DNA of 42,891 nucleotides from Acidobacteriaceae bacterium (GCA_003135315.1 PLBD01000467.1:8120-51010), one strand, 5' to 3'; counted from the stretch's first letter, positions 1-19,419 are shown. Program-made: numbers and translations. Notes: a model not told the origin generated them from the sequence alone.

Positions 1-1
1 T

Positions 2-1564
2 GTACCCATGATTCGGTAGCCCGCCGTTGTTCATTGTGGTCATGAACCCGGTCGGCAATTCACTCCGCGGCCAAAAATCGGAGAGATCTTTGTCCTTGCG
101 CGCGTCCCATTCATGCAAGGCAGCATCGAACGCCGCAGTTTCTGCCGGCTTGAAGAACCTTCCGCCGTATGGTTTCCTTTCTTGGGCACACGACGGGCAG
201 TATCCTTGTATCGCGTAGGCAGCCACGGGGCCCGTCTTTCCCAAGTGCCTCACGGCCTCGAGGACGTCCTGCACTCGTCCACACGTGGAGCCCTGGCATG
301 TGAAATGAGACTTCTTAGGAACCGTTCCTTTATTTGTCTCGAACGAAACTCCGGTCTCAGGACACGTGACCCGCTCAGGAAGTTTGCCTCGAACCTCTAT
401 GAGACGCGTCGTTTTCGCGCGCTCGGCATTCCACGCGACCGTTGCCTCCGGTAAATCGGTCGCGCTGCCTCCGAACAGTGCTCCGTTCCTAGATTTGGCA
501 GGCGAGCCCAAGAGAAACGACGGGTGCAAGAGCAGCGTGAGATCAACCTTCTTGTTCTTGCGTTTCTTGAGGTCGAGGGGCATTAGTTGTCGGTGTTGGC
601 AGTGCGGACAACGAACGCCGCTTCTCTTGTCGAGTACGGCGAAGGCCCTTTCGCTATCCGCGATCACCAAGGGAATACCCGGGGCCATACGAGCTTCCGC
701 ATCCTCCACGTCGAAGTGCTTGCGACACTTCTCGCAGCGCTGTTTCTCCCATGCTTTTACCGAGAGCGTCTTCACAGCCACGACGGGCGTCGACATGATT
801 GGAGTTCTGTGCCCGCAGCCTGTTACCTGACAAGGCCCGTGCTTGGCCCAGAAGACGTAGATGATCTCCGGGCCCTCGTAGCGATAAGACTGACGCTCCA
901 CTAGCGAGACTGAAAGCGGATCGAAGCCCGAGCCCATCTTTTTGCCTGTTGGAACGTGCGTCCATGAACCCTTGTGTCCCCGCGGACAATCACAGGCATA
1001 ATACGGGGCGATCGCCGGCCTCACTTCGCCGTCGACTTCGGCAAGCAACGCCTTGACCTCGTCCGGTGTCACCTTGGAGAACTCGTTCTTCACGACGAGC
1101 CAAGCGATTGGGTTTAGATCTGTTCCCCACATCTTCATTCCGAGCCGAGAGCCTTCAACGAGCGTCGTGCCGCCTCCCATGAAGATGTCGGCCACCCTCA
1201 GGTGTGCGAATGCCGCTTTCTTCTGATGATTGGCGTAAAAGAGATCCCAGACAGTCTTAGCGGCCTGCGCGGGATCAGCGGGAGCCTTGGCGCTTGCACC
1301 TATGAGGATTGAACGGAAGACGGTCGAGCGTCTGCGCGCCCACCATTTAGACATTTGATAGATCGGTTTGCCGGCGTTGCCTTCGATCGTCGCGACTTGG
1401 TTCACAGGGAGGATCGGGAAGTCCACCTCGAGGCATGTTCTCGGACGCGCGGGGTCAGCGAAGTCGACGGTTTCTACGGCAGTAGTCTTCCCCGCGCCGA
1501 CGGCGCGTGCGATATCGTCCTCGATCCCGGTCTTCCGGCGGTTCCCCGAATTCGCCTTAGCCAT
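2..1564 (-). CDS. DNA methyltransferase of the DUF1156 / COG1743 type (Zn-ribbon containing, PglXI-like); C-terminus lies beyond the left window edge
   Basis: Not in the ORF track because no stop falls inside the window. My reverse-strand translation from ATG 1564 stays open to position 2 (MAKANSGNRRKTGIEDD...). It has the DUF1156 hallmark IYQMSKWWARRRSTVF and a SAM motif-I region VADIFMGGGTTLVEGSRLGMKMWGTDLNPIAW. Several Cys pairs are present (CDCPRGH..CQVTGCGH; CEKCRKH..CPHCQH; CPETG..CQGSTCG; CPSCAQE). The ATG lies 8 nt after the stop of the upstream PglZ gene. Confidence 0.85.
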   Translation of the reverse strand, partial: MAKANSGNRRKTGIEDDIARAVGAGKTTAVETVDFADPARPRTCLEVDFPILPVNQVATIEGNAGKPIYQMSKWWARRRSTVFRSILIGASAKAPADPAQAAKTVWDLFYANHQKKAAFAHLRVADIFMGGGTTLVEGSRLGMKMWGTDLNPIAWLVVKNEFSKVTPDEVKALLAEVDGEVRPAIAPYYACDCPRGHKGSWTHVPTGKKMGSGFDPLSVSLVERQSYRYEGPEIIYVFWAKHGPCQVTGCGHRTPIMSTPVVAVKTLSVKAWEKQRCEKCRKHFDVEDAEARMAPGIPLVIADSERAFAVLDKRSGVRCPHCQHRQLMPLDLKKRKNKKVDLTLLLHPSFLLGSPAKSRNGALFGGSATDLPEATVAWNAERAKTTRLIEVRGKLPERVTCPETGVSFETNKGTVPKKSHFTCQGSTCGRVQDVLEAVRHLGKTGPVAAYAIQGYCPSCAQERKPYGGRFFKPAETAAFDAALHEWDARKDKDLSDFWPRSELPTGFMTTMNNGGLPNHGY

Positions 1565-1572: not shown

Positions 1573-2568
1573 TCACTCCGTCCGCGAAAGCTCGATGAAG
1601 GGCGAGGCGACCTCGAGAACGGTAAGTCCGCCATGCGTCAGTGTTGGATAGCCGCCCTGGCTCTTCCACTTCCGCCGTCCGAGGGCAAACTGTGTGATGC
1701 CGTGCTTCGTCATCAGCTCGAGCTGCACGGGTGGGACCCACGGAGACTCGTCTCTCTCCCCATAAGCAAACCGCCCCGACTTGAACACTTCCTTTAGAAA
1801 CCTGGCTTGATCATCCGGCGCGTCCGCAAAGAGTCCAGTTGCCGCGTAGCCATGGTCCGATGTGATGACGAGACGCCGTCCCGTACACATTCGGTCCACG
1901 AGCGACCAGAAGTCGTCGCTGGTCAGTTCTTTCGCGACTTCGACTGTGAGCCTCTCTAGACCCTGTCCCGCCGCCGCCAAATCGTGCACGCGGTTGTCCG
2001 GCCAGTGATGCCAGAGCACCCAATCCGGTTTGGTGTCGATCACCTTGGCTGCGTCGGCCCAAGGGATGCCGAGCGTCTCCGTTCGGGCCTTCTTCAGCCT
2101 GTGCGAGGATCCCGCACCATTGTTCTCGAGTGCCGCGCGGCCGGCGAATCCAAGTGCTCGTGCAAACGAAGACGTTTCACCCGGAAGCTCCGATGCAGTT
2201 GCGTACGAGGCGTGGAGCTTGTAGCCGCGTTTCTCTGCCTCCTTTAGAAGCCACGGAACCTCTCGCAGTGAGAGCCCATCGAGGATTAGGACCGCGCGGC
2301 CGGAGTTTCTTCCAGCCCACCACGAGGCCAACGTCTCTGCCGTCGTTGGGGCACTGGCATTGAATTCCTTCCACAGATCCCAGCCAGCGGCTGCCAGAAA
2401 CAAGTCGAGTGCAGCTGTCTCTCGATCGCGCGTTGTAACTTCACCTGGCGCCGCCTTCGGTGTCACCGGTGGGCTGCATATTTCCCAAGCGTGCTGGAAG
2501 ATCGCGCGCCATGCCTCTCTCGCCGTCGCGGTGGCTAGCGTCCGTGTTAGGGAAAGGGAGAGTCCCAT
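1573..2568 (-). CDS. pglZ: Minimal stand-alone PglZ-domain protein (alkaline phosphatase superfamily), 331 aa
   Basis: Track ORF. PglZ-type motifs occur in the expected order: AVLILDGLSLREVPWL, ELPGETSSFARAL, LVITSDHGYA, LTHGGLTVLEVASPF. ATG 2566-2568 directly abuts the TAG stop (2569-2571) of the upstream ATPase gene. Confidence 0.75.
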   Translation of the reverse strand: MGLSLSLTRTLATATAREAWRAIFQHAWEICSPPVTPKAAPGEVTTRDRETAALDLFLAAAGWDLWKEFNASAPTTAETLASWWAGRNSGRAVLILDGLSLREVPWLLKEAEKRGYKLHASYATASELPGETSSFARALGFAGRAALENNGAGSSHRLKKARTETLGIPWADAAKVIDTKPDWVLWHHWPDNRVHDLAAAGQGLERLTVEVAKELTSDDFWSLVDRMCTGRRLVITSDHGYAATGLFADAPDDQARFLKEVFKSGRFAYGERDESPWVPPVQLELMTKHGITQFALGRRKWKSQGGYPTLTHGGLTVLEVASPFIELSRTE

Positions 2569-5286
2569 CTACCCTTCGTCCTTCTTTAGGTTGAGCTCGT
2601 ATGTCAGCCCGTCCGGTAGCGCGCGCAGAACCTTCTGAAGCTGGGCGCCTGTTGATGCAGTGACCCTCAGGTTCACTTCGCGGACGGTGGTGCCCGGTCC
2701 GATACCCCACGCTTCGACTTTGCCAATGAGGTTCAGCGCTGAGGTCGCGGGGGCTGATAGCTCGACGACGTTGTTCGCTGCAACCGGTGGTCCTCCGAAG
2801 ATCGTTGCCCCCCCGATCGGATCAGCGGGAACCGGAACACCGCCGGGCTGAGTACCAGCCGACGGAGCCGGTGGTTGGAACAGCCCCACGCTCGAAGGAG
2901 CTTGACCTCCAGAGGTTGGCTGCGTCGCCAGGCCGTGCGCCTGCGGAACGGCCTGCGGAAGGAGAAGGTACGTCTCATCGAGATGCTTCCCGGTGCCGAG
3001 TCGGCCTCGCATCCGTATCCAGACAGATTCTTCGTCCTCACCCGGAGATGCCTGCAGGTATTCCATCCCACGAAGGTTGACGGCGATCTGCCCGCGGGCG
3101 CACATTCTAATGATCTTCTCCTTCATCGAGGTTTCGCCGAGCCATGGGATGCAATCCTCCTCATTCGGCCTCGGCTCTTGCAGCTCGCGAAGAACCTTCC
3201 CAACGGACTCATTGCTACCCGCCGCTGCGAGGACCAAAGCTTCGAAATCCTCTGGAACGAAGATATCGCTCTTGAGACACTCTTCAATGGCTTCGGGAAT
3301 CTTGCTGCCTTGCGCGGTCAGATTCTCGACGTGGAACTTGCAGCGCGTTGGGTCGGTGAAGCTCCATGTCCGAAGAACGGCGAACCGATCAAAGCGCTGT
3401 CTGATGATCGAACGCAGCTCCGTCTGGTACTTCGTCTGAAGCTTGCCGTACTCGGGATCCTGCGCGCGCCATTCCTGGGCTTTCAGAATAGCTCTCGCGA
3501 GCACGAGGAGATCCCGATCGTTGTACGCGTTGGTGCCGCCCGTGTGTGGCAGCAAGAAGCGGACGATGTTGCGTCGTCGTTGAAGTTGGTCCTTGAGCCA
3601 ACGACCGAGCTGTGCGTGCAGCTTGTCTGGCTCCTCGGGAAGAACCAGAATCGGGATCCGATCGTCCCATCGATCAGGCTGTTCCGAATCTTCGAGCCCC
3701 TTCCATGGTACCGTGGTCCACGCTGGCGGAAGCACGATAACGCGAAACGCCTTCGCTACGTCCTCGGTGCCTGAGAGAACGTATCGAATCTCGCGTCCAA
3801 GCTGAGCTCCGTCTGAACCATCCGTGAAAAGGCGATCGTTCCGCGCAAACGCCATGAGCTTTGCCTGCGGGTTCTCTTCCTCACGAAAGACGAGCCGCTC
3901 GCCGTCGGGATGGATGTTGAAGCTGTTGTCCGCAATCAGGGCGAGCTCGACCTGGAAGGCATTGTCGTCGATCGGTTTGCTTCGGGTGATGTCGACGTGA
4001 AGCATTTGCGGGCCGGCACCGGCATGATTGCCCACGGCCAGCGATCGGAGCCAGAGCGCCCCGACGATTTCGGAGAGGTGTGGAACCTCGGTGTCGGGCG
4101 ATTTGACGGCTTCGGCTACTGCTGTGAGGTTGCGCTGCGCCTTCTCTCGCAGAGTCGCATGGTGCTGGTTGGCAACCGAGTCCAGGAGCGCAGCGATCCC
4201 ACTCGACTCATCGTCAAGACGGAAGTCGGCCGCGGTGAGCACTGGCACCACTGCTCCACGACTCTTAAAGAGGTCTGCGAGGATCCGAATCAAATCGCGC
4301 GTCTCCTGTGCGTCCGTCGCGACCAGCACCTGGTCCTCCAGGAGTTGCATAAGGTGCGGCGCAAACGGCCACATCTCCAAGAAGTCGCGCCGCTTGCGAT
4401 CGTGGTCGGTGGGTGCGACGTCCATAAGGCGGAGGTACTCAGATACGTGCGCGGCTGTGAGCCCTTCGATGTCCGCCTGAGGGACCTGCGTGCGGTTCTC
4501 GAATAGGCGGTGGAGGAGGAGCCGGCGACGATCGCGCTCCGCGCTGGGGCCCTTGAAGTCGACTAGAACCGGGTTAACGCGATGGATCTGTTGATAGGCG
4601 TCCGTAGCGCCGTTCCGCACCGACACCACAAGAACAAGCAGCTCCGGATGCTCCTTCGCGATCTCCGACAAAATCTGAACGAAGTTGAAGGCCCAGTGCT
4701 TCCACGGGTACTGCTTCGTATTTGTTAGGCCGTCAAACCAAGTTTGGAATTCGTCTAGGAGGAGGGCAACGGGTTGCTTGTGAAGGAGCTCGAGTATGAG
4801 CGAGTCAGGCGGAATGTCAGTCTTCCGATCGCCAAGCCCCTCCCACTTTCCGCGAATGAACTGGCCGTGCGGATGCTGCTCAAAGAGTAGATCCCAGAGG
4901 AACTTGTAACGTTGGCGATGGAGGCTCTCGCTGATTACCATCATTCCGGTGCGGAGGGGCAGGCTGGCGATCTTTGGGACTTGAAGTCGATCCGCCCACG
5001 TCTCGAGCCACGATCTCGTGGCGTTCGCGTCCGTCAAAGTGTGATAGAGGGCGGCGAGCAAGTGCGACTTGCCTTGCCCTCGCTCACCGATCATCACCAG
5101 CGGTCGTCCCTGATCCGGCCCGACGGCTTCGATGGCCTTGAGCAAATCATGTGATGGGTAGGTAATCTCGAGGAACTCCGAGGCCGGAATCTGCGTTGCA
5201 CCGGTGTGCTTTTCGTTGGCCAATTCAATGGCCGTGCCCTTCAGGCGCTTGCCTTGGAATTCCTTGCGTAGCGTCAGGCCGAGCAT
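2569..5286 (-). CDS. DUF499 / COG1483 P-loop ATPase (BrxC/PglY-like), 905 aa
   Basis: Track ORF. Walker A is MIGERGQGKSHLLAALYH and Walker B is VALLLDEFQTW. A Pro/Gly-rich linker precedes a small C-terminal domain. The gene is tightly packed between the HTH gene (4-nt gap) and the PglZ gene (0-nt gap). Confidence 0.8.
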   Translation of the reverse strand: MLGLTLRKEFQGKRLKGTAIELANEKHTGATQIPASEFLEITYPSHDLLKAIEAVGPDQGRPLVMIGERGQGKSHLLAALYHTLTDANATRSWLETWADRLQVPKIASLPLRTGMMVISESLHRQRYKFLWDLLFEQHPHGQFIRGKWEGLGDRKTDIPPDSLILELLHKQPVALLLDEFQTWFDGLTNTKQYPWKHWAFNFVQILSEIAKEHPELLVLVVSVRNGATDAYQQIHRVNPVLVDFKGPSAERDRRRLLLHRLFENRTQVPQADIEGLTAAHVSEYLRLMDVAPTDHDRKRRDFLEMWPFAPHLMQLLEDQVLVATDAQETRDLIRILADLFKSRGAVVPVLTAADFRLDDESSGIAALLDSVANQHHATLREKAQRNLTAVAEAVKSPDTEVPHLSEIVGALWLRSLAVGNHAGAGPQMLHVDITRSKPIDDNAFQVELALIADNSFNIHPDGERLVFREEENPQAKLMAFARNDRLFTDGSDGAQLGREIRYVLSGTEDVAKAFRVIVLPPAWTTVPWKGLEDSEQPDRWDDRIPILVLPEEPDKLHAQLGRWLKDQLQRRRNIVRFLLPHTGGTNAYNDRDLLVLARAILKAQEWRAQDPEYGKLQTKYQTELRSIIRQRFDRFAVLRTWSFTDPTRCKFHVENLTAQGSKIPEAIEECLKSDIFVPEDFEALVLAAAGSNESVGKVLRELQEPRPNEEDCIPWLGETSMKEKIIRMCARGQIAVNLRGMEYLQASPGEDEESVWIRMRGRLGTGKHLDETYLLLPQAVPQAHGLATQPTSGGQAPSSVGLFQPPAPSAGTQPGGVPVPADPIGGATIFGGPPVAANNVVELSAPATSALNLIGKVEAWGIGPGTTVREVNLRVTASTGAQLQKVLRALPDGLTYELNLKKDEG

Positions 5287-5290
5287 GCGG

Positions 5291-5521
5291 CTATCTCCTC
5301 GTCAAGCTGGACCGTGACTTAGGGACGGCTGCCTGCGCTGGTTCCGCCTCTGCGACGGTCCGCTCCGTGATCCACATATCGAGCTCGGCGCGCCTGAATC
5401 GCCACGTGCCCCCGACTTTGAAGGCCGGCATTTGCCTCTCGGAGAGCAAGCGATAGATCGTTCGCTCCGTTACCTTCAGGTAGTCCGCGACCTCCCTTAG
5501 GGTGAAGATCTCCGTGCTCAT
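5291..5521 (-). CDS. Excisionase/MerR-type helix-turn-helix (HTH_17) DNA-binding protein, first gene of the defence operon
   Basis: MSTEIFTLREVADYLKVTERTIYRLLSERQMPAFKVGGTWRFRRAELDMWI is a classic HTH_17 pattern. I prefer ATG 5521, which has GAGGA 5 nt upstream; the track ORF starts at 5539. Confidence 0.75.
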   Translation of the reverse strand: MSTEIFTLREVADYLKVTERTIYRLLSERQMPAFKVGGTWRFRRAELDMWITERTVAEAEPAQAAVPKSRSSLTRR

Positions 5522-5538
5522 CGACGTCCTCATGCGCA

Positions 5539-5557
5539 TGTCGAGTGGTGCTCGACA
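5539..5557. promoter_or_regulatory. 7-bp-stem inverted repeat (TGTCGAG-TGGTG-CTCGACA) in the 5' leader of the HTH gene
   Basis: Read directly from the sequence. It sits 18 nt upstream of the preferred ATG 5521, next to the RBS. It could be an operator or an RBS-occluding hairpin. Confidence 0.35.
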
Positions 5558-5747
5558 GACTACGGTAAAACTTTCAGGACTTCTAGCTAGAATGGCTAAG
5601 GGATTCAGGATATTTCATCGAATGTGCCCGTCGATTCCTTGCGTCGCAAACGCAAGCCGATGGTGGTGGGCCCGCTGTTCAACTGATTGCCTAAGATTGA
5701 GGCACGACCGCATCAGCTCGAAAGGGCCCGGACGGCACGCGGTGCTT

Positions 5748-5757
5748 ATGCATGCAT
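5748..5757. promoter_or_regulatory. Perfect 10-bp palindrome ATGCATGCAT in the divergent intergenic region
   Basis: Read directly. It lies between the divergent HTH operon and the helicase gene, 78 nt upstream of ATG 5835. Function unknown. Confidence 0.25.
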
Positions 5758-5834
5758 GCGTCTCTTAGGAAGTGCAACATGGCGCTCGATTTGCTTCAAC
5801 AGGCCCGCCTTGCATCTAGAGAAGGAGCGCCCTA

Positions 5835-8800
5835 ATGCCCACACATCTCACAGCCCGGCTCGCTTGGCACACGGACGGCTGGAACGGATCCATTTGCCAT
5901 GCCCCGGAGAAGAATACCTACTGTGTCGGCTGCAAATCCTTTCCCGGCGATGTCATCGCTCGCGAACGCGACCTCAAGAAGGAACAGCTTCTCGCGGGCC
6001 GCTCGGGCGACAAGCTCGAGGGCTACGTTCCTCCATGCGGCTATAGTTACAACGCCTTCGGTCTCAACGAGGCTCCGGCCGCTTCGAACCCGCCGGACTT
6101 CTTTTTTGGCGGCGCGACGCGCCATGAGTGGCAGCTCCCGCCGGCTACCGTCAGTGTGTGGCCCTACGAGGCCATGTACGCGGAAGAAGTCAAGGCGGAG
6201 GGCTTCCTCGACAATGATCGCCGCCGCGCTTTGACGCTCGAGTTCTTTAAGCCCATCCAGGAAGACTGCGGCAAGAATCTCATTTTCTACTACGCCAACT
6301 ATTCGAACCCCCTCTCGGAAGACGAAGCGCCGCGTTACGTGCTCCTCGGCGTTTCCCGCATCATCAAGACGGGACCGGAGCTCTTCTACGAAAACGTGTC
6401 CCCCGAGGTCGCAAGAAAATATGCCGGCGGAATGATCTGGGCCCGCAACATCTCATCGGCTTACCCTGACGAAGGGGTTCGGCTCCCCTATCACCGCTAC
6501 GCTGGCGATCCCGACAGCCTGGCACGGATCGCTCTTTTTCCTGAAAATCCGCTGCTCTGCAAGTACGGCTCAAAGCACCTCACCGACGACGAAGCGATCG
6601 GGCTCCTCGAGCAGTTTCTCGCCAAGATTCGCCTGTTGCGCGACCTCGGCGACATGACGGAGGACTGGAGCGTTCGGGAGAGCTGGCTGCTCAAGGTCAT
6701 TGCGGGCCTCTGGACGCAGCGCGGCCTTTATCCCGGGCTTCTCAAGGCGCTCGATGTCGCGGGCGCCAGTCTCTTCGTCGACCGGGTCAAGGCTCTCTGT
6801 GCCGAAGTGGGTCACACCGCAGCGCATACGGCGGCCTTCGAGGTCCTCGAAGCAGGCCGCGACAACGCCCTTACAAAAGGTTTGGAACCTTCGGCCGCCA
6901 AGAAGATTGCCCGTAACTGGAGGCTGTTGGACGACGGTGCGCGGCTGCTCCTGCGTGATGTCCTACCGAGGCTTGATCTTCCTGCCGATGTGATGCAGGA
7001 AATCGTCTCGAAGGAGCGTGCCGATTGCGGGCTGACCGTATCGGCGGAGGAAATTGCGGGAAATCCCTATCTGATTGCCGAGCTCTATTGTGGGGTGGAC
7101 TCCAGTGATCGGATTTCCTGGAGCACTATCGACCGCGGCGTTTTGCCTTCCCCAGACCTCGGCGGCACACATCTGGCCGATGTGGAGTTTAATGACGCGC
7201 GGCGATTTCGCTCCCTGTGCGTTGAACATTTACGCACTGAACCAAAACACACCTTCCGGCTGGCGCGAGATCTCATTGTCGAGATCGCCGAGCGAATGTC
7301 CAGGCTTCCGGCATGGAAGCAGGCGGAGTTTACGGAGCGCTACTTTGATGTTGACGCGGATTTCCTGTCGGCAGCCCTAACCCTGCGTACCATTGAACCC
7401 AACTTGGCGATCTACCTGAAGTCTGTGTTCGAAGATGAACGAAACCTTGAGGGCACGCTTCGCGACCTGGCATCGCGGCCGGATATAACCTTACGTCGGC
7501 CGGTGACCGAGGCTGACTGGTTGTCGTGGGTATTCAAGTCTGACAGTCCGCTCGCCCTGAATGCGGGCGCGGAATATGCCGAGGCGACAAAGGAACAATC
7601 GGAGATCTGTTACCGCCTGTTCAACCGTCCGCTCAGCGTCGTAACGGGGCCAGCCGGAACAGGAAAGACAACCGTTATCGAGGCACTGATCCGCGCCGTG
7701 CGGCGCTCCGAAGGGGACGCCGCCGCCGTATTGGTGCTGGCTCCGACCGGAAAAGCAGCGGATCGCGCGCGTGAAGTTTTCGAAAAATCGTCGCTTCAGC
7801 GCGTGGAGACCGTAACGGTGCATTCGTTCCTCGCCTCGAATGGATGGTTGAACGAGAATCTTACGTTCAAGCGTGGGGGCGGAACGCGCGCCGAAGTGGG
7901 CACGCTCGTCCTCGACGAAGCTTCGATGTTGGACCTCGAGCTTGCGGCGGCCCTCTTCCGTTCAGTTGACTCGCAGCATATTCGGCGGCTGATCTTGGTC
8001 GGTGACCCCGGCCAGCTTCCGCCGATTGGACGAGGCCGCGTCTTTGCCGACGTGATCAAATGGCTGTCAACAGACCATCCCGAGAGCCTTGGCCGCCTCC
8101 GGCGCAATCTCCGTCAATTGCTGAACAAGGTACGAGGCGAAGGCACGGCTATCGTCTCAATGTCTGAACTGTTCCTTTTCGATGACGACGACAAGGGCGT
8201 TGGCGGCACCGACGCCGCCACTCGGGCCGACCAGGAAGACCTCATCGCGCGTATTCACGCTGGAGGCACGGTGGACCGCGACCTCGACGTCATTTACTGG
8301 AACGAGCCAGAAGAGCTCGCCCGCACGCTCATTGAAGCCGCCGAAGCCCGAATGAGCAAGGGGAAGCCCGTCGACGGAAAGCAGCCCTATCAGATTTGGC
8401 GCGAAGCCCTTGACGGCGATCCGATGGCATTCCAGATTCTGACGCCTCACCGCGGTGAGTTGCACGGCGTTGAAGCGATCAACGAGGCCTGCCAGGATCG
8501 CATCGCAGGATTCGTGCTTGGAAGGATCGGCGCCGTCGACGGAATAACGCTCTTCGACAAAGTCATTCAAGTGCGTAATCGGCCCAAATCGAATCCGATA
8601 TGGGCCTACGATTGGAAGCGCCGCGAGAACATTAGAGTCGAAACCTTCAATGGCGAGATCGGTATAGTTGGGACCTTTCCATTCGATAAGAAGATCTGGA
8701 CCACTTTGAAGACGGGATACGGACCACGTCTCAAGCGCTTCACGGTCCAGTTTACCCGCAAGCCGAACATCACCGTGGGTTACGGGCGCGGCGTGCCCGC

Positions 8801-9467
8801 AGGGAAATACTCGAAGAATGAGAAGGTCGAAGAGAATCTTGAACTGGCGTATGCCGTATCGGTGCATAAGGCGCAGGGCAGCGAGTTCGCCAACACCTTC
8901 GTGATCATTCCATCGAGTTCAAAGCGACCCGTGTCAGCCGAGTTGGTCTACACGGCGCTGACGCGGGCAAGCCAACACTGCACCCTCCTGATACAGCGAG
9001 ATGTGACCAGTTTGCTCGACGCACGGCGGCGTGAGAATGCGCAGACACCCCAAATCAATTCGTATCTGTTCTCACTGCATGTTGCAAAGGACGCACTGAC
9101 GAATCGGCGAAGCTGGTACGAGTCCGGGAAGATCCACGAAGCGCTCAGCGGCGACATGCTCAGGTCCAAGTCCGAAGTCATCATCGCTAATCTATTGCAC
9201 GACCGAGCGATTCCTTTCCGGTACGAGCAGCCCCTTTTCGCGAAGGACGGAACGCTGCGTCTACCGGATTTCACCGTTACCTGGCGCGGAAACACCTATT
9301 TCTGGGAGCATCTCGGGCTTCTCGACCAGACTGCGTATGCGGAGGAATGGGAACGGAAGCGAGCATGGTACGGCCGCTGGTTCCCTGATCAACTCCTAAT
9401 TACAAAGGAAGGTGCTCAGCTCAGCAAATCGGCCGAGGAGATCATCGCGAGGATCACCGCCGTGTAA
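5835..9467 (+). CDS. 1210-aa fusion protein: unknown Cys-rich N-terminal half + RecD-like SF1 helicase + C-terminal PD-(D/E)xK-like nuclease module
   Basis: ATG 5835 has GAAGGAG 7 nt upstream. Helicase motifs: Walker A VTGPAGTGKTT (GPAGTGKTT at 7647-7673), LVLDEASML, LILVGDPGQLPPIGRGRVF, YAVSVHKAQGSEF, VYTALTRASQHCTLL. The C-terminus LRLPDFTVTWRGNTYFWEHLG resembles a restriction-endonuclease-fold core. I do not recognise the N-terminal ~600 aa (LAWHTDGWNGSICHAPEKNTYCVGCKSF...). Confidence 0.85.
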   Translation: MPTHLTARLAWHTDGWNGSICHAPEKNTYCVGCKSFPGDVIARERDLKKEQLLAGRSGDKLEGYVPPCGYSYNAFGLNEAPAASNPPDFFFGGATRHEWQLPPATVSVWPYEAMYAEEVKAEGFLDNDRRRALTLEFFKPIQEDCGKNLIFYYANYSNPLSEDEAPRYVLLGVSRIIKTGPELFYENVSPEVARKYAGGMIWARNISSAYPDEGVRLPYHRYAGDPDSLARIALFPENPLLCKYGSKHLTDDEAIGLLEQFLAKIRLLRDLGDMTEDWSVRESWLLKVIAGLWTQRGLYPGLLKALDVAGASLFVDRVKALCAEVGHTAAHTAAFEVLEAGRDNALTKGLEPSAAKKIARNWRLLDDGARLLLRDVLPRLDLPADVMQEIVSKERADCGLTVSAEEIAGNPYLIAELYCGVDSSDRISWSTIDRGVLPSPDLGGTHLADVEFNDARRFRSLCVEHLRTEPKHTFRLARDLIVEIAERMSRLPAWKQAEFTERYFDVDADFLSAALTLRTIEPNLAIYLKSVFEDERNLEGTLRDLASRPDITLRRPVTEADWLSWVFKSDSPLALNAGAEYAEATKEQSEICYRLFNRPLSVVTGPAGTGKTTVIEALIRAVRRSEGDAAAVLVLAPTGKAADRAREVFEKSSLQRVETVTVHSFLASNGWLNENLTFKRGGGTRAEVGTLVLDEASMLDLELAAALFRSVDSQHIRRLILVGDPGQLPPIGRGRVFADVIKWLSTDHPESLGRLRRNLRQLLNKVRGEGTAIVSMSELFLFDDDDKGVGGTDAATRADQEDLIARIHAGGTVDRDLDVIYWNEPEELARTLIEAAEARMSKGKPVDGKQPYQIWREALDGDPMAFQILTPHRGELHGVEAINEACQDRIAGFVLGRIGAVDGITLFDKVIQVRNRPKSNPIWAYDWKRRENIRVETFNGEIGIVGTFPFDKKIWTTLKTGYGPRLKRFTVQFTRKPNITVGYGRGVPAGKYSKNEKVEENLELAYAVSVHKAQGSEFANTFVIIPSSSKRPVSAELVYTALTRASQHCTLLIQRDVTSLLDARRRENAQTPQINSYLFSLHVAKDALTNRRSWYESGKIHEALSGDMLRSKSEVIIANLLHDRAIPFRYEQPLFAKDGTLRLPDFTVTWRGNTYFWEHLGLLDQTAYAEEWERKRAWYGRWFPDQLLITKEGAQLSKSAEEIIARITAV

Positions 9468-9508
9468 TGCGCCGGGCGCGCAAAGGTTTGCGGACGACGA
9501 CTGCCAGA

Positions 9509-9889
9509 TTAGCCTGTGGCCCGATCTTGCCACGCAAATATGTCGGCGGCGCGCCACCGAACAGCTCTAGGTCCAACACGAGTCTGCGCAGGGAATCGCC
9601 TTTCGCTTATCAGGCGATAGATCATTGACCTCGATAGGCCGACCAGGCTCTCGACATCCGAAAGGCGTAGGAGACGGCGTGAGATTAGTGGGTCATCGAA
9701 GTCGCGATCAGCTGAAATCCTTTGTGAACTGGCAGACTGCACAGGGTTTACGCGACGGCTAGCGAGGCGGATGATTTCATCTCTGAGCCGGGAGATCTCG
9801 TCTACAGCCCATTGCCGCTCCTGCAGTAGCTCCCCGAGGGTGCGGTGACCGGGATCGGCCCTCATTGCGTCGAACATATCTCGTGGCAT
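9509..9889 (-). CDS. AlpA-family (phage/island) HTH transcriptional regulator with an N-terminal coiled-coil-like extension
   Basis: The C-terminal LLRLSDVESLVGLSRSMIYRLISERRFPAQTRVGPRAVRWRAADIFAWQ is the AlpA/Phage_AlpA pattern. The start is uncertain: ATG 9889, GTG 9742, or the track start 10027. Confidence 0.7.
   Translation of the reverse strand: MPRDMFDAMRADPGHRTLGELLQERQWAVDEISRLRDEIIRLASRRVNPVQSASSQRISADRDFDDPLISRRLLRLSDVESLVGLSRSMIYRLISERRFPAQTRVGPRAVRWRAADIFAWQDRATG
9523..9780. repeat. Direct repeat R1, copy A (~258 bp, carries most of the AlpA-like gene)
   Basis: Hand alignment to 17534-17791 gives equal length and about 20 substitutions, with no indels seen. Confidence 0.85.
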
Positions 9890-10084
9890 TGGGTAGGCTC
9901 TCCAAACTGTCTGGACCTCTGTATGAGGTGTTGGCAGCCGATGTTGCGACGCCAACCCTGTAGTAACTCTAGTGTGCCGGTTTTTGTGCGGAAACTGGCG
10001 CCGGCGCCGGCCGCGACCGGCCGGCACAGTCCATGATATTCAATAGCTTATCATTATTGCGCTGCACTAAAAAGAGACAAATTA

Positions 10085-10129
10085 GCATTCGTAATGCGCG
10101 GGTCGCAGGTTCGACTCCTGTCTCCGCAA
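10085..10129 (+). other. 3' fragment of a tRNA-Thr(CGT) gene (anticodon loop to discriminator); probable att remnant
   Basis: The fragment reads GCA-TTCGTAA-TGCGC-GGGTC-GCAGG-TTCGACT-CCTGT-CTCCGCA-A. That is an anticodon loop with CGT, a variable loop, a T-arm with a TTCGA-type loop, and a 3' acceptor strand. Upstream sequence cannot form the matching 5' acceptor strand, D-arm, or full anticodon stem. Confidence 0.7.
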
Positions 10130-10209
10130 TCTTGGCACTTCCAGCAATATCCAAAGACGTCCGCAAGTTCGATGAATATCCTTAATTTATAGATACCGGC
10201 GGGACCGAC

Positions 10210-11865
10210 TCAGTCTGCTGGAGTCGGTTCATAGATTCTCGAATTGCCGAATGCTGCGAGAAGCCAAGGGGTAAGCTCATTCATCTTGCCGACTGTCCGT
10301 TCCGCGGGCGTCAGCCCTGGACGAAAGCCGCGTGCCCGCAAAGATTCGAGAATTTCTGGCTGACGACTAATCACATACACTGGGACGTCCCACGATGCGC
10401 CGTCGCCGCTGACGTTGGCGGCTGGCTGGTGATCCCCAAGAATGATCAGCACAAAATTGTCGCCCGCACGCTCCCGCAGATAGTTCGCGATCACATCCAA
10501 AAAATATTCCACTGAACTCAGGTAACTTTTGTCCATGTGAGTCCAATCTGGTTTCTGCGCGAGCGCACGCTGCAAGGGTTCGGCGTCGTAGGGCTGGGCG
10601 GTGAGTATGCGGTGCCCGTCTGGCTGCAGCGGCGGGGTGGGCACAAAGGGCATGTGCGTAGAGACGGTGGGAAAGAACACGAACAACGGTTTGCGGGGCT
10701 GGCGCTGCAATTCCTCAGCATCGAGTACTGCCAGCGAAAACTGATCGGGTATGCGCCACCATCCGAATTCGGGACCACGATAGTCGAGGCTTTTGGCGTC
10801 GTAGATCTCGTCAAACCCGTAGAATGCGCCTTCGGGCCAGCTCTGGCGCATACCTGGCATCACATCGATGGTGCGATAGCCGTGAGCTTTGAAGACCGAT
10901 ACCAGGGTTGGTCGCTGCTGGGTCATCAGCAGCGCATAGCGGCTGGAATCGCGGACCTCGATGCCTGAGAGCAAGCTCACGTGCGCGAGTACCGAGCCGC
11001 CGCCGAACGTGGGCGAGCTGACATAGCCCGACACGACGCTGCGGTGGGTATCTTGCACGGCCGCGGCCAGCCTTGCTCGTACCGGCATCAGGGCCTGCAC
11101 AAACTCCGGTCGATCGTATGTGACTCTGCCGTAGGATTCCATAAAGACAAGCAGCACGTCCTGGCCGGGCAGCGCAGCGAAGCTCGAGTGCAGGGGCGGC
11201 GAGGGCGGCAGGAGTTGGGTTGCACGGTTCGAAAGCGCATCAATAATCCGCACGAGCTGCTCGCTGTAGGTCTTGCTAACCGGGATCGAGAAGCGCGGTA
11301 GAGGCGGGAACCCGCCGGTGCTTTGCTGAACAAGGAAGCAACCAACGAGCACGATCCCCACAAGTCCGACACCCATTCGCGCAGCGTGATGGAAACGCAG
11401 CATGGCATCGATCTGCCCGAGCGACCAACGGGAGGCGACATACAACCCAGCGAGCACCACGAGGGCGCCAACACAGATCGTAGCCACCGACCAGAGGGAA
11501 GCCACGCGGAACAGCATGCCGGCGACGGAGGCAAGCTGGGGTACATCCCAATAGAGATTCACTTCGCGCCCGTAGAGCGCCGGCGCCGTCACGGCGCCAT
11601 AGCGGCCCAATGCAAAGATGACGATGAGCCCCGACAGTACGGCGAGCAAGCGACCCGGTGTCGGTCCGAGCCAGGCATTTGAGAGTGCGAGAAGTAGCAG
11701 TAGCGCCGCCAGCTCGATCGATAGCTCGCCTCGCCAGTGGACCGCGAGTGTCGGCCATACATTGTGAAACGTGACCAAGCCGTTGAGCAGTACCACCGCG
11801 ACACACACCGATGCCCAGCGGTGCCAACCACGCCGCCTTCGGATGCTGGTATCTGTGGCTAGCAT
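10210..11865 (-). CDS. Membrane-anchored sulfatase-fold transferase/hydrolase (LTA-synthase / phosphoglycerol- or phosphoethanolamine-transferase-like)
   Basis: The N-terminus has about 5 hydrophobic helices. The periplasmic alkaline-phosphatase-fold domain follows (VLLVFMESYG, GGGSVLAHVSLLSG, FFPTVSTHMPF, VLIILGDHQP). I prefer ATG 11865, which overlaps the upstream gene's TAG stop; the track uses TTG 11907. Confidence 0.7.
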   Translation of the reverse strand: MLATDTSIRRRRGWHRWASVCVAVVLLNGLVTFHNVWPTLAVHWRGELSIELAALLLLLALSNAWLGPTPGRLLAVLSGLIVIFALGRYGAVTAPALYGREVNLYWDVPQLASVAGMLFRVASLWSVATICVGALVVLAGLYVASRWSLGQIDAMLRFHHAARMGVGLVGIVLVGCFLVQQSTGGFPPLPRFSIPVSKTYSEQLVRIIDALSNRATQLLPPSPPLHSSFAALPGQDVLLVFMESYGRVTYDRPEFVQALMPVRARLAAAVQDTHRSVVSGYVSSPTFGGGSVLAHVSLLSGIEVRDSSRYALLMTQQRPTLVSVFKAHGYRTIDVMPGMRQSWPEGAFYGFDEIYDAKSLDYRGPEFGWWRIPDQFSLAVLDAEELQRQPRKPLFVFFPTVSTHMPFVPTPPLQPDGHRILTAQPYDAEPLQRALAQKPDWTHMDKSYLSSVEYFLDVIANYLRERAGDNFVLIILGDHQPAANVSGDGASWDVPVYVISRQPEILESLRARGFRPGLTPAERTVGKMNELTPWLLAAFGNSRIYEPTPAD

Positions 11866-12623
11866 TTCGAGGTCCGGGTACTGGGTAGCGAATTGCGGTA
11901 AAGCCAAAGGACCTGCTGTAGGAAGGAAAGCGTGAGCGCAGCCGACGCTGCCGCAGCAACCCTAGCGCTCAGTGCCGGGGAGACAAACGGCGCGATGGCT
12001 ACGATCAGGGCGACCATTTGCACGACGGCGATGGTCTTGCGCAAGTAGCTCGGAGGAAGCGGACGTCGCAACAAAGGCACGACCGCACCGGCCGCAAGGT
12101 AAAGATAGCGCAACAGTCCTGCCCAGAGCACCCAGGCCCCGACTTTACCGAATTGCCACGCCAGTGCTGCAAGCACGGCGACCAACACTGCATCGGTCTC
12201 CATGTCGAACCGGGCGCCAAAGCCGCTGACCATTTTGCTCCGACGCGCGAGCCATCCATCGGCGCCATCGAGGAGGCAGACAACGGACGCAGCCACCATG
12301 ACCATGGCTGGAACGCCGCTGACCGTTGATTCTCCGATCAGGGCGAAGAGCAACGCAACCAGAGTTCCGCGGACGAGAGTCACCTGGTTGGCGGGGCCAA
12401 GGCACGCAAAGGGATGCTGCTGCGGCAGCACCCAGAGCATCATCCCTGCACCGACACCGAAAACGAGTACGCTTTTGGCGACATACCACCCGCTCAGCTG
12501 CAGCCGGTCGGCCACGAACCAGGCAATCGCCACCATCGCCAGCCCAACCGGTAAGATGCCGGTCAACGCGCTGTGCAGGAGACTCCGGTGCTCGGGCCTG
12601 GCAATCGTTGTAGTGAGAGCCAA
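11859..12623 (-). CDS. CDP-alcohol phosphatidyltransferase family protein
   Basis: The signature DGADGWLARRSKMVSGFGARFDMETDAV matches DGx2ARx8Gx3Dx3D, and the protein is multi-pass hydrophobic. The track ORF extends to 12947 but would overlap the divergent dehydrogenase gene. The start is uncertain: TTG 12623 or ATG 12536. Confidence 0.75.
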   Translation of the reverse strand: MALTTTIARPEHRSLLHSALTGILPVGLAMVAIAWFVADRLQLSGWYVAKSVLVFGVGAGMMLWVLPQQHPFACLGPANQVTLVRGTLVALLFALIGESTVSGVPAMVMVAASVVCLLDGADGWLARRSKMVSGFGARFDMETDAVLVAVLAALAWQFGKVGAWVLWAGLLRYLYLAAGAVVPLLRRPLPPSYLRKTIAVVQMVALIVAIAPFVSPALSARVAAAASAALTLSFLQQVLWLYRNSLPSTRTSKC

Positions 12624-12629
12624 TTTTCC

Positions 12630-13616
12630 GTGGATCCTCTGAGCCGGAACGATACGCTGGCATTCTGGATCACGGCGCCGGGCCGCGGCGAGCTGCGGCG
12701 CGAGGCCGTGCCGGCGCCCAGCGATGGCGAAGCGAGTGTACAGGCACTTTATAGTGGCGTCAGCCGCGGCACCGAGTCGCTCGTTTTCGGCGGCCATGTA
12801 CCCCCCAGCGAGTACGAACGCATGCGTGCACCGTTCCAGACAGGACAATTCCCGGCCCCGGTCAAATACGGTTACGCGAATGTCGGTCAGGTGTTGGAAG
12901 GCCCATCCCAGTGGGTCGGCAAAATCGTCTTTTGCCTTTATCCGCATCAGCAGCGCTACATAGTGCCTTGCGATGCACTGTACCTGCTACCCGAGTTGGT
13001 TCCTCCGTCCAGGGCGGTACTGGCGGCAAATCTCGAGACTGCGCTCAACGGGGTATGGGATTCGGGCGCGGGTCCCGGCGATCGCGTGAGTGTCGTAGGC
13101 GGCGGCAGTGTCGGGTGCCTGGCGGCGTGGCTCTTAGGCCGCATGCCGGGTTGCGAGGTCGAACTGGTGGACATCAATGCACAGCGCGCCAGCATCGCCC
13201 AGGCATTGGGCGTGAAGTTCACGCTGCCCGCTAGAGCGAGGGCCGAGGCGGACGTTGTGCTGCACGCGAGCGGCTCGGCCGACGGACTCGCCGTGGCGCT
13301 GCGCATCGCCGGGTTCGAAGCCACGGTCGTCGAGCTCAGCTGGTACGGCGACCGACCCGTGACCGTCGCACTGGGCGAGTCCTTCCACTCGCGACGCCTG
13401 GTATTGAGGTCTTCCCAGGTGGGGGCGGTGGCCGAGGCGCGTCGTGCACGTTGGAGCCACCGGCGACGCATGGAGACGGCGCTGTCTTTGCTCACCGATC
13501 CGGCGCTCGACGCGCTCATCAACAGCGAAGGCTGCCTCGAGGCTCTGCCACAGACTCTGCAGCAGCTGTCGAGGCGGCCAGGGGACGTCATCATGCATCG
13601 CGTGAAATACGACTGA
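12630..13616 (+). CDS. Zinc-type medium-chain dehydrogenase/reductase (MDR) family protein
   Basis: ALYSGVSRGTESLVFGG and the Rossmann motif VSVVGGGSVGCLAAWL are present. The start is uncertain (GTG 12630 or GTG 12573). It lies back-to-back with the CDP-alcohol transferase gene with essentially no spacer. Confidence 0.7.
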   Translation: MDPLSRNDTLAFWITAPGRGELRREAVPAPSDGEASVQALYSGVSRGTESLVFGGHVPPSEYERMRAPFQTGQFPAPVKYGYANVGQVLEGPSQWVGKIVFCLYPHQQRYIVPCDALYLLPELVPPSRAVLAANLETALNGVWDSGAGPGDRVSVVGGGSVGCLAAWLLGRMPGCEVELVDINAQRASIAQALGVKFTLPARARAEADVVLHASGSADGLAVALRIAGFEATVVELSWYGDRPVTVALGESFHSRRLVLRSSQVGAVAEARRARWSHRRRMETALSLLTDPALDALINSEGCLEALPQTLQQLSRRPGDVIMHRVKYD

Positions 13617-13637
13617 TCAAGCCTCAGGGAGCAAAGG

Positions 13638-14045
13638 ATGTACACGGTATGCGTACGCGATCACATCATGATCGCCCATAGCCTTCGCGGCGAGGTGTTC
13701 GGGGCCGCCCAGCGTCTGCATGGTGCAACCTACGTCGTGGATGTCGAGTTCCGACGGCGTGAACTGGATCGGGACGGCGTTGTCGTGGACATCGGATGTG
13801 CCACCGATCTGTTGCGCGAGGTGCTGACCGAGCTCAATTACCACAATCTCGACGCACTGCAGGGGTTCTCCGGACGTAACACGACCACTGAAGTCATCGC
13901 CAAGACCATCTTCGACCGCCTGGCTGCGGGAATTGGTGCGGGCCGACTGGGTGCCTCGGCGCTGCCGATTGCGAGCGTACGCGTGTGCTTGCGCGAATCT
14001 CATGTGGCGTGGGGGGCCTTCGAGGGAGAGCTCGCGGCACCGTGA
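13638..14045 (+). CDS. 6-pyruvoyl-tetrahydropterin synthase / QueD (PTPS) family protein
   Basis: 135 aa. HIMIAHSL...HGATYVVDVEF...LNYHNLD is the typical PTPS-fold pattern. Confidence 0.7.
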   Translation: MYTVCVRDHIMIAHSLRGEVFGAAQRLHGATYVVDVEFRRRELDRDGVVVDIGCATDLLREVLTELNYHNLDALQGFSGRNTTTEVIAKTIFDRLAAGIGAGRLGASALPIASVRVCLRESHVAWGAFEGELAAP

Positions 14046-15091
14046 GCCAACGCGCGCTGGAGTTCCTGGTACCGGGAGACCTGCGTGCGGGGACGGGCGG
14101 CTATGTGTATGACCGCCGCATCGTCGCGGGGCTGCGCGCGCTGGGCTGGCGAATCACGGTTCACACACTGGAGGCGAGCTTTCCTCATCCCAACGCCTCG
14201 GCGCTCGAGCATGCGCGCCACGTGCTCGCGAGCTTGGCCGACCAGGCACTGGTCCTCATCGATGGACTCGCGCTCAGTGCCATGCCGGAGGTGGTCCGGT
14301 CGCACTCGGCGCGCCTAGCACTGGTGGCTCTGGTGCATATGCCGCTCGGGTCCGATCGCGGGCTGCAGGCCGGCATGGCGCAAGTGCTGGAGCAGTCGGA
14401 GCGCCAGGCGCTACAGGCCGTTCGCCACATCGTAGTCACGGGCCGCTCCTCCCGCGAGACACTCAGGCGCTATGGGATTGCTCCCGAACGCATCTCTATC
14501 GTTGAGCCGGGCACCGACGAGGCGCCGGTGACGTGCCGTTTCTCCGAGGAGGCGGTCAGGCTCCTATGTGTGGCCACGCTGGGTCCCGGCAAGGGACACG
14601 AGCTGCTCATCGACGCCCTCGCACCGCTCGCCCCGATGCGCTGGCACCTTACGTGCGTTGGCAGTCTGGCGCGGTACCCGAAGACGGTCGAGCAGCTGCG
14701 CGCTCAGCTGCAGCACACGGGTCTGACCGAGCGCGTGACGCTCGTTGGTGAAGTGGATCCCGGGGAGGTCACGCGGTTCTATCAAGATGCCGATCTGTTC
14801 GTGCTGGCGACACGCTCCGAGAGCTACGGCATGGCGATCGCGGAGGCGCTGGCGCACGGCTTACCGGTCATCAGTACATGCACGGGCGCCATTCCAGATC
14901 TGGTCGGAGCCGATGCCGGACTGCTCGTTATGCCTGATCACCTGGAGGCGCTGCGGCAGGCGCTGGCGCGCGCGCTCAACGATCCGGTGCTGCGCGCCTC
15001 ACTGGCGCGAGGCGCGGCGGTGGCTCGTCGCACGTTGCCACGCTGGTCAGAGGCCTGTAGCCGCATGATGCGCATCCTCGAGGAAGTCTAA
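14042..15091 (+). CDS. Glycosyltransferase family 1 (GT4-type)
   Basis: GKGHELLIDAL and SESYGMAIAEALAHGLPVISTCTGAIPDLV form the EX7E-type region. The preferred GTG 14042 overlaps the PTPS stop (GTGA); the track starts at 13985. Confidence 0.8.
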   Translation: MSQRALEFLVPGDLRAGTGGYVYDRRIVAGLRALGWRITVHTLEASFPHPNASALEHARHVLASLADQALVLIDGLALSAMPEVVRSHSARLALVALVHMPLGSDRGLQAGMAQVLEQSERQALQAVRHIVVTGRSSRETLRRYGIAPERISIVEPGTDEAPVTCRFSEEAVRLLCVATLGPGKGHELLIDALAPLAPMRWHLTCVGSLARYPKTVEQLRAQLQHTGLTERVTLVGEVDPGEVTRFYQDADLFVLATRSESYGMAIAEALAHGLPVISTCTGAIPDLVGADAGLLVMPDHLEALRQALARALNDPVLRASLARGAAVARRTLPRWSEACSRMMRILEEV

Positions 15092-16284: not shown

Positions 16285-16556
16285 ATGATTCGCCGCATCC
16301 GGGACCGTGGGCTCGAACCGAGAGGGATGAAGCTCGTGGCCTGCCGGCGGGGCAGGTCGACAAGATCCGCCGTATTCTGGCTCGGCTCGATCAAGCCACC
16401 GCCGCGGAGCATATGGACCTGTCAGGACTGCGACTGCATCTTCTCAGGGGCGAGCTCGCGGGACACAGGAGCGTCACGGTCCAGGCCAATTGGCGGATCA
16501 TCTTGCGCTTCGAAAGTGGGGACGTGACGGACGTGGATTACTTGGACTATCACTAG
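16285..16556 (+). pseudogene. higB: HigB-type (RelE/ParE superfamily) toxin gene with an apparent frameshift near codon 11
   Basis: Frame 1 gives MIRRIRDRGLE, then nonsense. From about 16320 a second frame gives ...RGLPAGQVDKIRRILARLDQATAAEHMDLSGLRLHLLRGELAGHRSVTVQANWRIILRFESGDVTDVDYLDYH*, the typical HigB body. Stop TAG is at 16554-16556, 9 nt before higA. Confidence 0.65.
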
Positions 16557-16565
16557 GATACGCAC

Positions 16566-19417: not shown

Positions 19418-19419
19418 CT

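Follow-up and report, generated by a model that had tools for sequence, protein, structure and literature searches.

A 42,891-nucleotide stretch of DNA from an Acidobacteriaceae bacterium (GCA_003135315.1 PLBD01000467.1:8120-51010), referred to here as the window, contains at positions 5835–9467 a plus-strand gene for a 1210-residue protein with a RecD-type helicase core and a nuclease-like tail. The gene lies divergent from an operon headed by an HTH_17 gene, across an intergenic region of 295 bp, and the question raised by this arrangement is whether the protein is an arm of the operon's defence system or works on its own. The answer that we favour, with a probability of roughly 0.6, is that it is an autonomous, single-polypeptide helicase–nuclease of the PDC-S68 family, acting in anti-phage or anti-mobile-DNA defence independently of the operon, which encodes an Hma system, a DUF499-centred BREX-related (BR) system (PMC12839542). 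This answer is carried by the intact open reading frame (ORF) and its architecture, by the conservation of ATPase and acidic nuclease residues, and by the homologs, which have no conserved partner gene in common and lie in defence islands and mobile elements.

The gene, its family and its motor

Positions 5835–9467 form one unbroken ATG-to-TGA ORF of 1210 codons, as given by the ORF list and the translation. The start codon is supported by the N-terminal sequence, MPTHLTARLAWH, because it fits the family consensus start MxxHxTARLAWH. A promoter and terminator scan of positions 5250–10100 returned nothing better than was found in shuffled sequence. The earlier note had described a three-part protein; the ORF is real, and structure prediction divides its product into four modules, the N-terminal half being two: a domain of residues 1–260, a RecD2-like arm, a RecD-type helicase and a PD-(D/E)xK-fold tail. 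The features of the gene are as follows.

5822..5827, plus strand: AAGGAG, Shine–Dalgarno-like, 7 nt before the ATG (direct sequence reading)
5835..9467, plus strand: complete gene, stop included, for the 1210-residue PDC-S68-family helicase–nuclease (ORF list, translation, PADLOC PDLC05066)
5835..6614, plus strand: residues 1–260, uncharacterised predicted alpha/beta domain (AlphaFold2 predicted local distance difference test (pLDDT) ~88–97, conservation in 206 homologs)
6615..7574, plus strand: residues 261–580, mostly helical arm, predicted RecD2-like helix-hairpin-helix/pre-helicase region (AlphaFold2, BFVD, TIGR01448)
7575..9014, plus strand: residues 581–1060, RecD-type superfamily 1 (SF1; SF1B) helicase core (Pfam, PDB sequence matches, conservation)
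9015..9134, plus strand: residues 1061–1100, low-confidence linker (pLDDT ~59–66 over residues 1–50 of the tail model)
9135..9464, plus strand: residues 1101–1210, predicted PD-(D/E)xK-fold (restriction-endonuclease-like) domain (AlphaFold2, Foldseek, profile, PHROG)

The protein matches the PADLOC model PDLC05066 (PDC-S68) with E = 0 and 1691.5 bits, residues 1–1207 aligning with positions 1–1200 of the 1202 in the model, and the sister models PDLC05065 and PDLC05064 with 643.6 and 496.7 bits, among 21 PADLOC families matched when matches are counted at E ≤ 0.01. By these alignments it is a member of PDC-S68, with nothing structural that appears to set it apart. More than 626 homologs of the protein are present in the protein collection, and the N-terminal 580 residues alone, when searched in full against 1.84 billion representative proteins, gave 786 clusters at 50% identity. 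The motif set and the family match are far beyond chance, and a chance origin is dismissed because of the 1691.5-bit match, these homologs and these N-terminal clusters. The long matches to the N-terminal region are all proteins of ~1040–1450 residues with the region at the N terminus each time; since all have the same layout, the architecture of the family is constant.

Phage defence candidates (PDCs) were predicted from their embedding in BREX, DISARM and type I restriction–modification (RM) systems (bioRxiv 10.1101/2024.01.29.577857), and PDC-S68 is a single-gene PADLOC candidate from that work (Payne et al., bioRxiv 10.1101/2024.01.29.577857). The family, being already in PADLOC, is therefore less novel than was assumed earlier; the novelty is modest because PDC-S68 is catalogued and helicase–nuclease defence is of a known kind. 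The family call is thus largely known, and what is new here is the N-terminal domain.

The motifs quoted in the earlier note are all found in the translation, those of the helicase with the residues indicated.

Residues 9–36: LAWHTDGWNGSICHAPEKNTYCVGCKSF
Residues 66–76: PPCGYSYNAFG
Residues 604–612: GPAGTGKTT (Walker A, K611)
Residues 693–698: LDEASM (motif II, D694 and E695)
Residues 722–734: VGDPGQLPPIGRG (motif III, VGDPGQLPPIG, Q727)
Residues 1010–1018: VHKAQGSEF (motif V)
Residues 1041–1045: ALTRA (motif VI, YTALTRA, R1044)
Residues 1141–1161: LRLPDFTV..YFWEHLG

The helicase is the only part of the whole protein recognised by Pfam, with matches to AAA_30 (2.8e-28) and AAA_19 (3.1e-26) at residues 585–757 and to UvrD_C_2 (2.2e-13) at residues 1004–1051, and a weak SH3_13 match at residues 908–947 that corresponds to an SH3-like insert. 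The best PDB sequence matches of the motor are RecD (1w36_D) and RecD2 (3e1s). What had been called a complete RecD/TraA-type SF1 motif set is accordingly confirmed as a RecD-type core. The conservation alignment comprised 206 distinct full-length sequences of the family. In it K611, D694, E695, Q727, Q1014 and R1044 are each kept in 206 of 206 homologs, and the ATPase is therefore under strong selection. The models of the characterised families all score below their cut-offs: 199.3 bits against 500 for RecD2 (TIGR01448), 167.4 against 310 for RecD (TIGR01447), and, among relaxase–helicases, 50.9 against 590 for TraA_Ti and 37.7 against 2212 for TraI. Because of these scores, and with RecD and RecD2 as the best PDB matches, the motor is taken to be a RecD-type SF1 helicase that is not an ortholog of RecD, RecD2 or the relaxase–helicases.

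The top BFVD match of the arm that precedes the core, at E = 9.6e-3 and a probability of 0.99 over 289 columns, is a protein annotated as 'RecD2 DNA helicase-like helix-hairpin-helix domain', which is the sole credible BFVD match obtained with residues 1–580, and the RecD2 model TIGR01448 aligns from residue 450 (residues 450–743 plus the C-terminal motifs). As the two agree, residues ~280–580 probably form a RecD2-like arm, the most variable module of the protein, with a mean pairwise identity of 0.435 against ~0.53–0.55 in the other three. The first ~600 residues had been reported earlier as unrecognised; this holds for residues 1–260, which match nothing, and no longer for residues ~280–580, given their resemblance to the RecD2 arm.

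The family is represented by 227 confirmed stretches in the genomes of 185,579 species, spread patchily over many phyla and occurring in ~0.1% of species; the locus search was seeded with an alignment of the closer relatives. N-terminal domains 77–82% identical to that of the window protein are present in contigs assigned to Verrucomicrobiota, Longimicrobiales, Binatia and Polyangiaceae, and such copies in other phyla indicate horizontal spread. Phage genomes essentially lack the family, and of its 21 plasmid carriers 20 are typed as non-mobilizable. One contig of an Azotimanducaceae metagenome-assembled genome (CBDBHT010000007.1) carries two diverged paralogs ~95 kb apart, L027 and L045, whose N-terminal domains share 71% and 60% identity with the query.

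These data bear on a reading in which the protein would be a helicase–nuclease for repair, recombination or mobile-element maintenance, of a Dna2-, AddAB-, RecD2- or TraA-like kind, carried on islands and plasmids to serve their own replication or transfer instead of defence. RecD and RecD2 are indeed its closest characterised relatives, and some loci are on plasmids or lie beside type IV coupling proteins, relaxases, integrases or transposases. Against this, the RecD2 and RecD scores (199 versus 500 and 167 versus 310) and those of TraA and TraI are far below the cut-offs, Pfam finds no relaxase domain in the 1210-residue protein, coupling proteins are 2 of the 94 immediate neighbours of family genes, nearly all the typed plasmids are non-mobilizable, and presence in so small a fraction of species is contrary to a housekeeping role. 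A maintenance function is thus distinctly unlikely. A relaxase or housekeeping domain in the N-terminal half, which the earlier note had considered, is likewise found by neither Pfam nor Foldseek.

The C-terminal tail and the N-terminal domain

The tail (residues 1051–1210) was modelled with AlphaFold2 from a 62-sequence alignment at a mean pLDDT of 84.8, the last ~110 residues reaching 88–98. The model has an alpha-beta-beta-beta-alpha-beta-alpha topology, with helix 62–73, strands 78–80, 96–100 and 103–110, helix 116–132 and strand 137–141 in model numbering. Foldseek comparison with the PDB gave nine top matches at probabilities of 0.97–1.00, almost all of them PD-(D/E)xK nucleases; the matches include the DrdV nuclease domain (E = 3e-3, probability 1.00), the restriction-like endonuclease of the R2 retrotransposon (R2 RLE), Bax1, AF1548, TnsA, NucS, Hjc and XisH. 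PHROG 9019, 'Holliday junction resolvase', also matches the tail (E = 6.5e-4), and is the lone match of NCBIfam and PHROGs over the three flanking pieces of the protein. Pfam returned nothing for residues 1051–1210 at E ≤ 10, and 28 homologs of this domain scanned singly gave no consistent family. Together, the structural and PHROG matches support a predicted restriction-endonuclease fold in the tail.

The conserved residues of the tail are S1111, K1112, E1114, Y1130, E1131, P1144, D1145, F1146, W1157, E1158, H1159 and G1161. A profile of the tail family matches the PDB sequences of Bax1 and T7 endonuclease I weakly (E = 0.03–0.2), and in the profile alignment E1114, D1145 and E1158 lie opposite E20, D55 and E65 of T7 endonuclease I, which we take to be the catalytic residues of that enzyme. 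Among the 206 homologs E1114 is present in 202, with D in 3 more, and D1145 and E1158 in 203 each; H1159 is kept in 202 and K1112 in 200. Position 1160, where the canonical (D/E)xK motif has its lysine, is hydrophobic (L in 152, W in 30, V in 11 and I in 4). The earlier proposal of a restriction-endonuclease-fold core therefore survives for the fold, by Foldseek and PHROG, and fails for the 'E-x-L/K' site, which has L, W, V or I in place of lysine. The conserved acidic triad argues for a predicted variant-type active site, 'SKSE...PDF...WEHxG', in which H1159 and K1112 might stand in for the canonical lysine.

The missing lysine might also mean that the nuclease fold has lost its catalytic activity and works as a sensor of DNA or nucleotides, in which case the protein would be a translocase, for example for protein stripping or replication stalling, or an abortive-infection switch. 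Degenerate nuclease domains usually lose their catalytic residues, whereas here the acidic triad (202–203 of 206), H1159 (202 of 206) and K1112 (200 of 206) are retained, a pattern typical of an active variant site. A dead fold is for this reason improbable, in spite of the inactive restriction-endonuclease sensor domains that have been proposed for BrxHII and the Hma helicases (PMC12839542).

At the other end of the protein, AlphaFold2 models residues 1–580 with a pLDDT of 92.3 and a predicted template modelling score of 0.87, as an alpha/beta domain (residues ~1–250), a helical part (residues ~250–470) and a small helix/hairpin element. The alignment points to residues 1–260 as the site of the protein's most striking conservation. 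The conserved positions are H4, R8, W11, H12, W16, G18, C21, P24, N27 and C30, followed by E50, P66, P67, C68, Y153, N158, P159, G172, W202 and P218. Of these, C21, C30 and C68 are invariant, H12 is kept in 200 of 201 sequences, H4, R8, N27 and E50 are near-invariant, and W11, W16, Y153, N158, W202 and P218 are conserved as well. It is a reasonable inference that C21, C30 and C68 with H12 form a putative Cys3-His metal site.

No relative of this domain was found. Pfam gave no match in residues 1–580 at E ≤ 10 and, for 26 N-domain homologs scanned singly at the same threshold, scattered lone matches with no consistent family (single matches of this kind in the N- and C-domain homolog scans include DUF276, DUF1947 and DUF7878); NCBIfam and PHROGs gave none for the N-terminal pieces, and a profile of the domain found nothing among PDB sequences at E ≤ 10. 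The 580-residue model has no Foldseek match in the PDB at E < 1, its weak local winged-helix matches not being relied on, and residues 1–260 have no structural relative in BFVD. Three specific identities were also considered and set aside. A HEPN domain at the N terminus is rejected, as the R8-x3-H12 spacing is wrong and these residues lie in a beta strand of the AlphaFold2 model; a deaminase-like domain or an Fe-S 'iron staple' is unsupported, there being only three invariant cysteines and neither PCxxC nor CxxC; and a PUA/EVE-like reading of the 'IFYYANYSNP...YVLVGVSRI' hairpin finds support from neither Foldseek nor Pfam.

Tentatively, and with more doubt than confidence, residues 1–260 may represent a new class of nucleic-acid sensor, one that reads, for instance, DNA modifications, DNA ends or replication structures, or else an enzymatic domain of a new type. 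The domain would then set target specificity and make PDC-S68 a mechanistically new form of ATP-dependent restriction.

Genomic surroundings of the gene and its homologs

The operon next to the helicase–nuclease gene runs in the order HTH–DUF499–331-residue protein–methyltransferase–173-residue protein–SNF2 helicase. Its last genes lie beyond the window edge and are seen in metagenomic contigs encoding an identical 1210-residue protein, which complete the operon with a 1078-residue methyltransferase, a 173-residue protein and an SNF2 helicase. The part within the window is as follows.

5291–5521 (or 5539), minus strand: HTH_17 gene
2569–5286, minus strand: DUF499-like ATPase, 905 residues
1573–2568, minus strand: 331-residue protein with a weak match to the PglZ C terminus (PADLOC E = 1.1e-5)
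1–1564, minus strand: DUF1156-like methyltransferase, first 521 codons, cut by the window edge

The label 'BREX-like' given earlier to this operon was close, the system being Hma, DUF499-centred and BREX-related rather than BREX proper (PMC12839542). The presence of a short PglZ-like protein (1573–2568, minus strand) within an Hma/BR system is noteworthy in itself.

Homolog surroundings were taken from 80 loci of species-representative genomes, together with contigs encoding homologs and plasmids. The earlier note had suggested that the protein could serve the neighbouring system as its effector or helicase arm; in the strict form of this reading it would work only in company with that system. 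The divergent arrangement across 295 bp, and its recurrence in metagenomic contigs with the identical protein, speak for such a tie; the recurring contigs, however, are copies of one element, with 99–100% identity. At blastp E ≤ 1e-5, homologs of the DUF499 ATPase or the methyltransferase are found in 0 of the 74 other loci with a PDC-S68 member, and blastp of the HTH, DUF499, 331-residue, methyltransferase and AlpA proteins against all locus ORFs returned same-element copies only. The system moreover has its own SNF2 helicase (PMC12839542), and PADLOC classes PDC-S68 as a single-gene candidate. Because of this lack of co-occurrence the protein is rejected as an Hma/BR component, a role that we consider highly improbable. 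The other possibility raised earlier, an independent single-gene defence, fits the data, as there is no conserved partner gene.

Across 69 loci the neighbours of PDC-S68 genes differ in size, strand and family. The biggest neighbour cluster, SNF2 helicases, is present in 13 of the 69 loci at variable position and strand, and HsdM and HsdS are present in 9 and 6. No Pfam family accounts for more than 9 of the 94 immediate neighbours, the commonest being ResIII, SNF2, DNA methylases and AbiEii-type/SMC ATPases; PADLOC matches of these 94 are mostly to redundant SNF2 models. Homologs lie in defence islands, an association that the earlier note had left to be examined and that is seen in DISARM, type I RM, CBASS, MADS and Gabija contexts. 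The annotated contexts (L numbers denote loci) are as follows.

DISARM-like cluster with an integrase
HEPN-SNF2 and SACS pair, on a conjugative element
After a type I RM system, with BrxR, an AAA_15 pair and CBASS (L006)
MADS with a WYL regulator
Gabija, 6 kb away
Inside a DISARM-like cluster (L092)
Paracoccus sp. SCSIO 75233 plasmid p7, 24 kb, 5632–12609: 18 nt downstream of a type ISP enzyme on the same strand (L093)
Bacillus cereus plasmids, beside drmA; homolog 26% identical

The type ISP and PDC-S68 pair of L093 could offer a natural setting in which to see whether the two cooperate. As a separate observation, an SNF2 helicase (~1040–1057 residues) is paired with a ~463–484-residue protein beside PDC-S68 homologs in six loci.

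L001: 5400–9976
L026: 4593–9186
L029: 4609–9187
L046 and L047: 13959–18533
L090: 4227–8766

The smaller protein of this pair has no Pfam match in L001 and L090, the two of these loci with Pfam annotation, nor a PADLOC match in L001. Since its orientation and side vary, the pair is suggested to be a separate, uncharacterised two-gene module travelling with PDC-S68.

Modification-dependent restriction logic is followed by SauUSI and BrxU/GmrSD, and a type IV-like variant of it could be imagined for PDC-S68, in which the N-terminal domain would read a modified base or chemical mark, and the motor and nuclease would destroy the phage DNA, complementing the methylation-based systems alongside. The idea is attractive because most of the annotated neighbours are methylation-based (Hma/BR, type I RM, DISARM-like, type ISP and MADS). 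The N-terminal domain, aromatic-rich, highly conserved and not hypervariable, also has in W11, W16, Y153 and W202 residues that would suit the recognition of a fixed chemical feature, and complementary embedding has a precedent in BrxU (bioRxiv 10.1101/2024.01.29.577857). No modified-base reader (EVE, YTH, SRA, ASCH, PUA or DUF3427) is found, however, by Foldseek in the PDB at E < 1 or by Pfam in 26 members, and context is the sole basis of the idea, which on balance is unlikely.

Further genes of the window lie beyond the stop codon of the helicase–nuclease gene.

9509–10027, minus strand: AlpA/HTH_17-type regulator (Phage_AlpA E = 4e-15), convergent, 41 nt from the helicase–nuclease stop
10210–15091: cluster of sulfatase-family, CDP-alcohol phosphatidyltransferase, PTPS-like and GT4 glycosyltransferase genes
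16413–16883, 16940–17527 and 19420–19971, plus strand: HigB-like toxin with HTH_3 antitoxin, uracil-DNA glycosylase family gene and 183-residue integrase-like fragment

AlpA-type regulators are typical of integrative elements. The cluster at 10210–15091 is possibly for envelope lipid or polysaccharide modification, and sits between the defence genes and the toxin–antitoxin pair. The gene identities at 16413–19971 are taken from their correspondence with L007–L009; the toxin–antitoxin pair, the uracil-DNA glycosylase gene and the integrase-like fragment suggest that the whole region is a genomic island.

Proposed action and relation to known systems

Helicase–nuclease fusions recur in bacterial immunity, as in Nhi, Hachiman, Druantia DruE and Gabija; for most of the single-protein helicase–nucleases we know of no account of how foreign DNA is told from self. 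If the PDC-S68 protein is an autonomous defence protein, its N-terminal Cys3-His domain and RecD2-like arm would engage either a trigger induced by the phage or some feature of the invading DNA, the latter most probably free ends or replication and recombination intermediates that contain single-stranded DNA (ssDNA). The RecD-type SF1B motor would then hydrolyse ATP and translocate 5'→3' on ssDNA, and the C-terminal PD-(D/E)xK-fold domain would cleave the DNA threaded along it. We infer the 5'→3' polarity from RecD family membership, and likewise infer that the tail cuts DNA, that the N-terminal domain binds metal, what the trigger is and that the gene defends at all.

Several points weigh against this proposal. 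The standing of PDC-S68 is a prediction from genomic embedding, and literature searches found no paper naming the family and no mechanism or domain analysis of it; a search on RecD-like helicase–nuclease defence also found no study of the family. The placement of homologs in defence islands comes from annotated individual loci rather than from an enrichment statistic, and neighbouring ORFs were called by a crude longest-ORF method. In the tail, the Foldseek E-values are modest, the best being 3e-3, and nuclease activity is not assured because the canonical lysine is replaced. In the N-terminal domain, the mean pairwise identity over the 206 homologs is 0.548, next to 0.534 in the motor, a conservation that is unlike the rapid evolution of sensors in many defence proteins and makes its role ambiguous; a fixed ligand or a catalytic role would therefore fit this domain better than the reading of fast-evolving phage proteins.

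Other members of PDC-S68 have the same length and architecture and are found next to or within RM, DISARM and BREX-like systems. Where these are embedded, the window gene adjoins the Hma/BR system, from which it is divergent. With that system the protein shares physical neighbourhood and a common defence-island gene pool; the system, in contrast, relies on an N6-methyltransferase together with a DUF499 ATPase and a helicase of the SNF2 (SF2) type (PMC12839542), and the 1210-residue protein is no component of it.

The SF1 motif set and the SH3-like insert are common to the window protein, RecD2 (TIGR01448; PDB 3e1s/3gp8) and RecD (1w36_D), the arm resembles that of RecD2, and 5'→3' translocase activity on ssDNA is presumed to be shared. 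The OB_YrrC N-terminal domain of RecD2, however, is not matched by Pfam in residues 1–580, its place being taken by the ~260-residue putative Cys3-His domain, and the window protein differs from RecD2 and RecD also in its added C-terminal PD-(D/E)xK domain, its patchy, island-borne distribution and the lack of recB and recC neighbours. The tail for its part has the alpha-beta-beta-beta-alpha-beta core of T7 endonuclease I, Bax1 and R2 RLE, with E...PD...E aligned, whereas the equivalent of T7 endonuclease I K67 is hydrophobic and the tail instead has a histidine after the glutamate ('WEHxG') and a lysine in helix 1 ('SKSE'); the similarity is marginal.

Nhi (Bari et al. 2022, as summarised in PMC12904381) is a stand-alone staphylococcal system of single-gene nuclease–helicase immunity that joins an SF1-type helicase and a nuclease. 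It resembles the window protein in combining both in one polypeptide, and could plausibly serve as a model of how phage replication intermediates are attacked; it differs in that the nuclease of the window protein is C-terminal and its N-terminal domain unrelated, and the PADLOC Nhi models are not among the 21 families matched at E ≤ 0.01. The trigger of Nhi, a phage single-stranded DNA-binding protein, is not known to apply to PDC-S68.

For annotation, the 1210-residue gene is better labelled as a PDC-S68, RecD-like helicase–nuclease than as 'exodeoxyribonuclease V alpha' or 'AAA family ATPase', and should not be counted within the neighbouring Hma/BREX-related system. The family is widespread across phyla and lies beside many methylation-based systems, and its N-terminal domain is predicted to be well folded and has no known relative. 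If PDC-S68 defends its hosts, this domain would likely decide which targets are chosen, and would offer a new sensing module to dissect or engineer.

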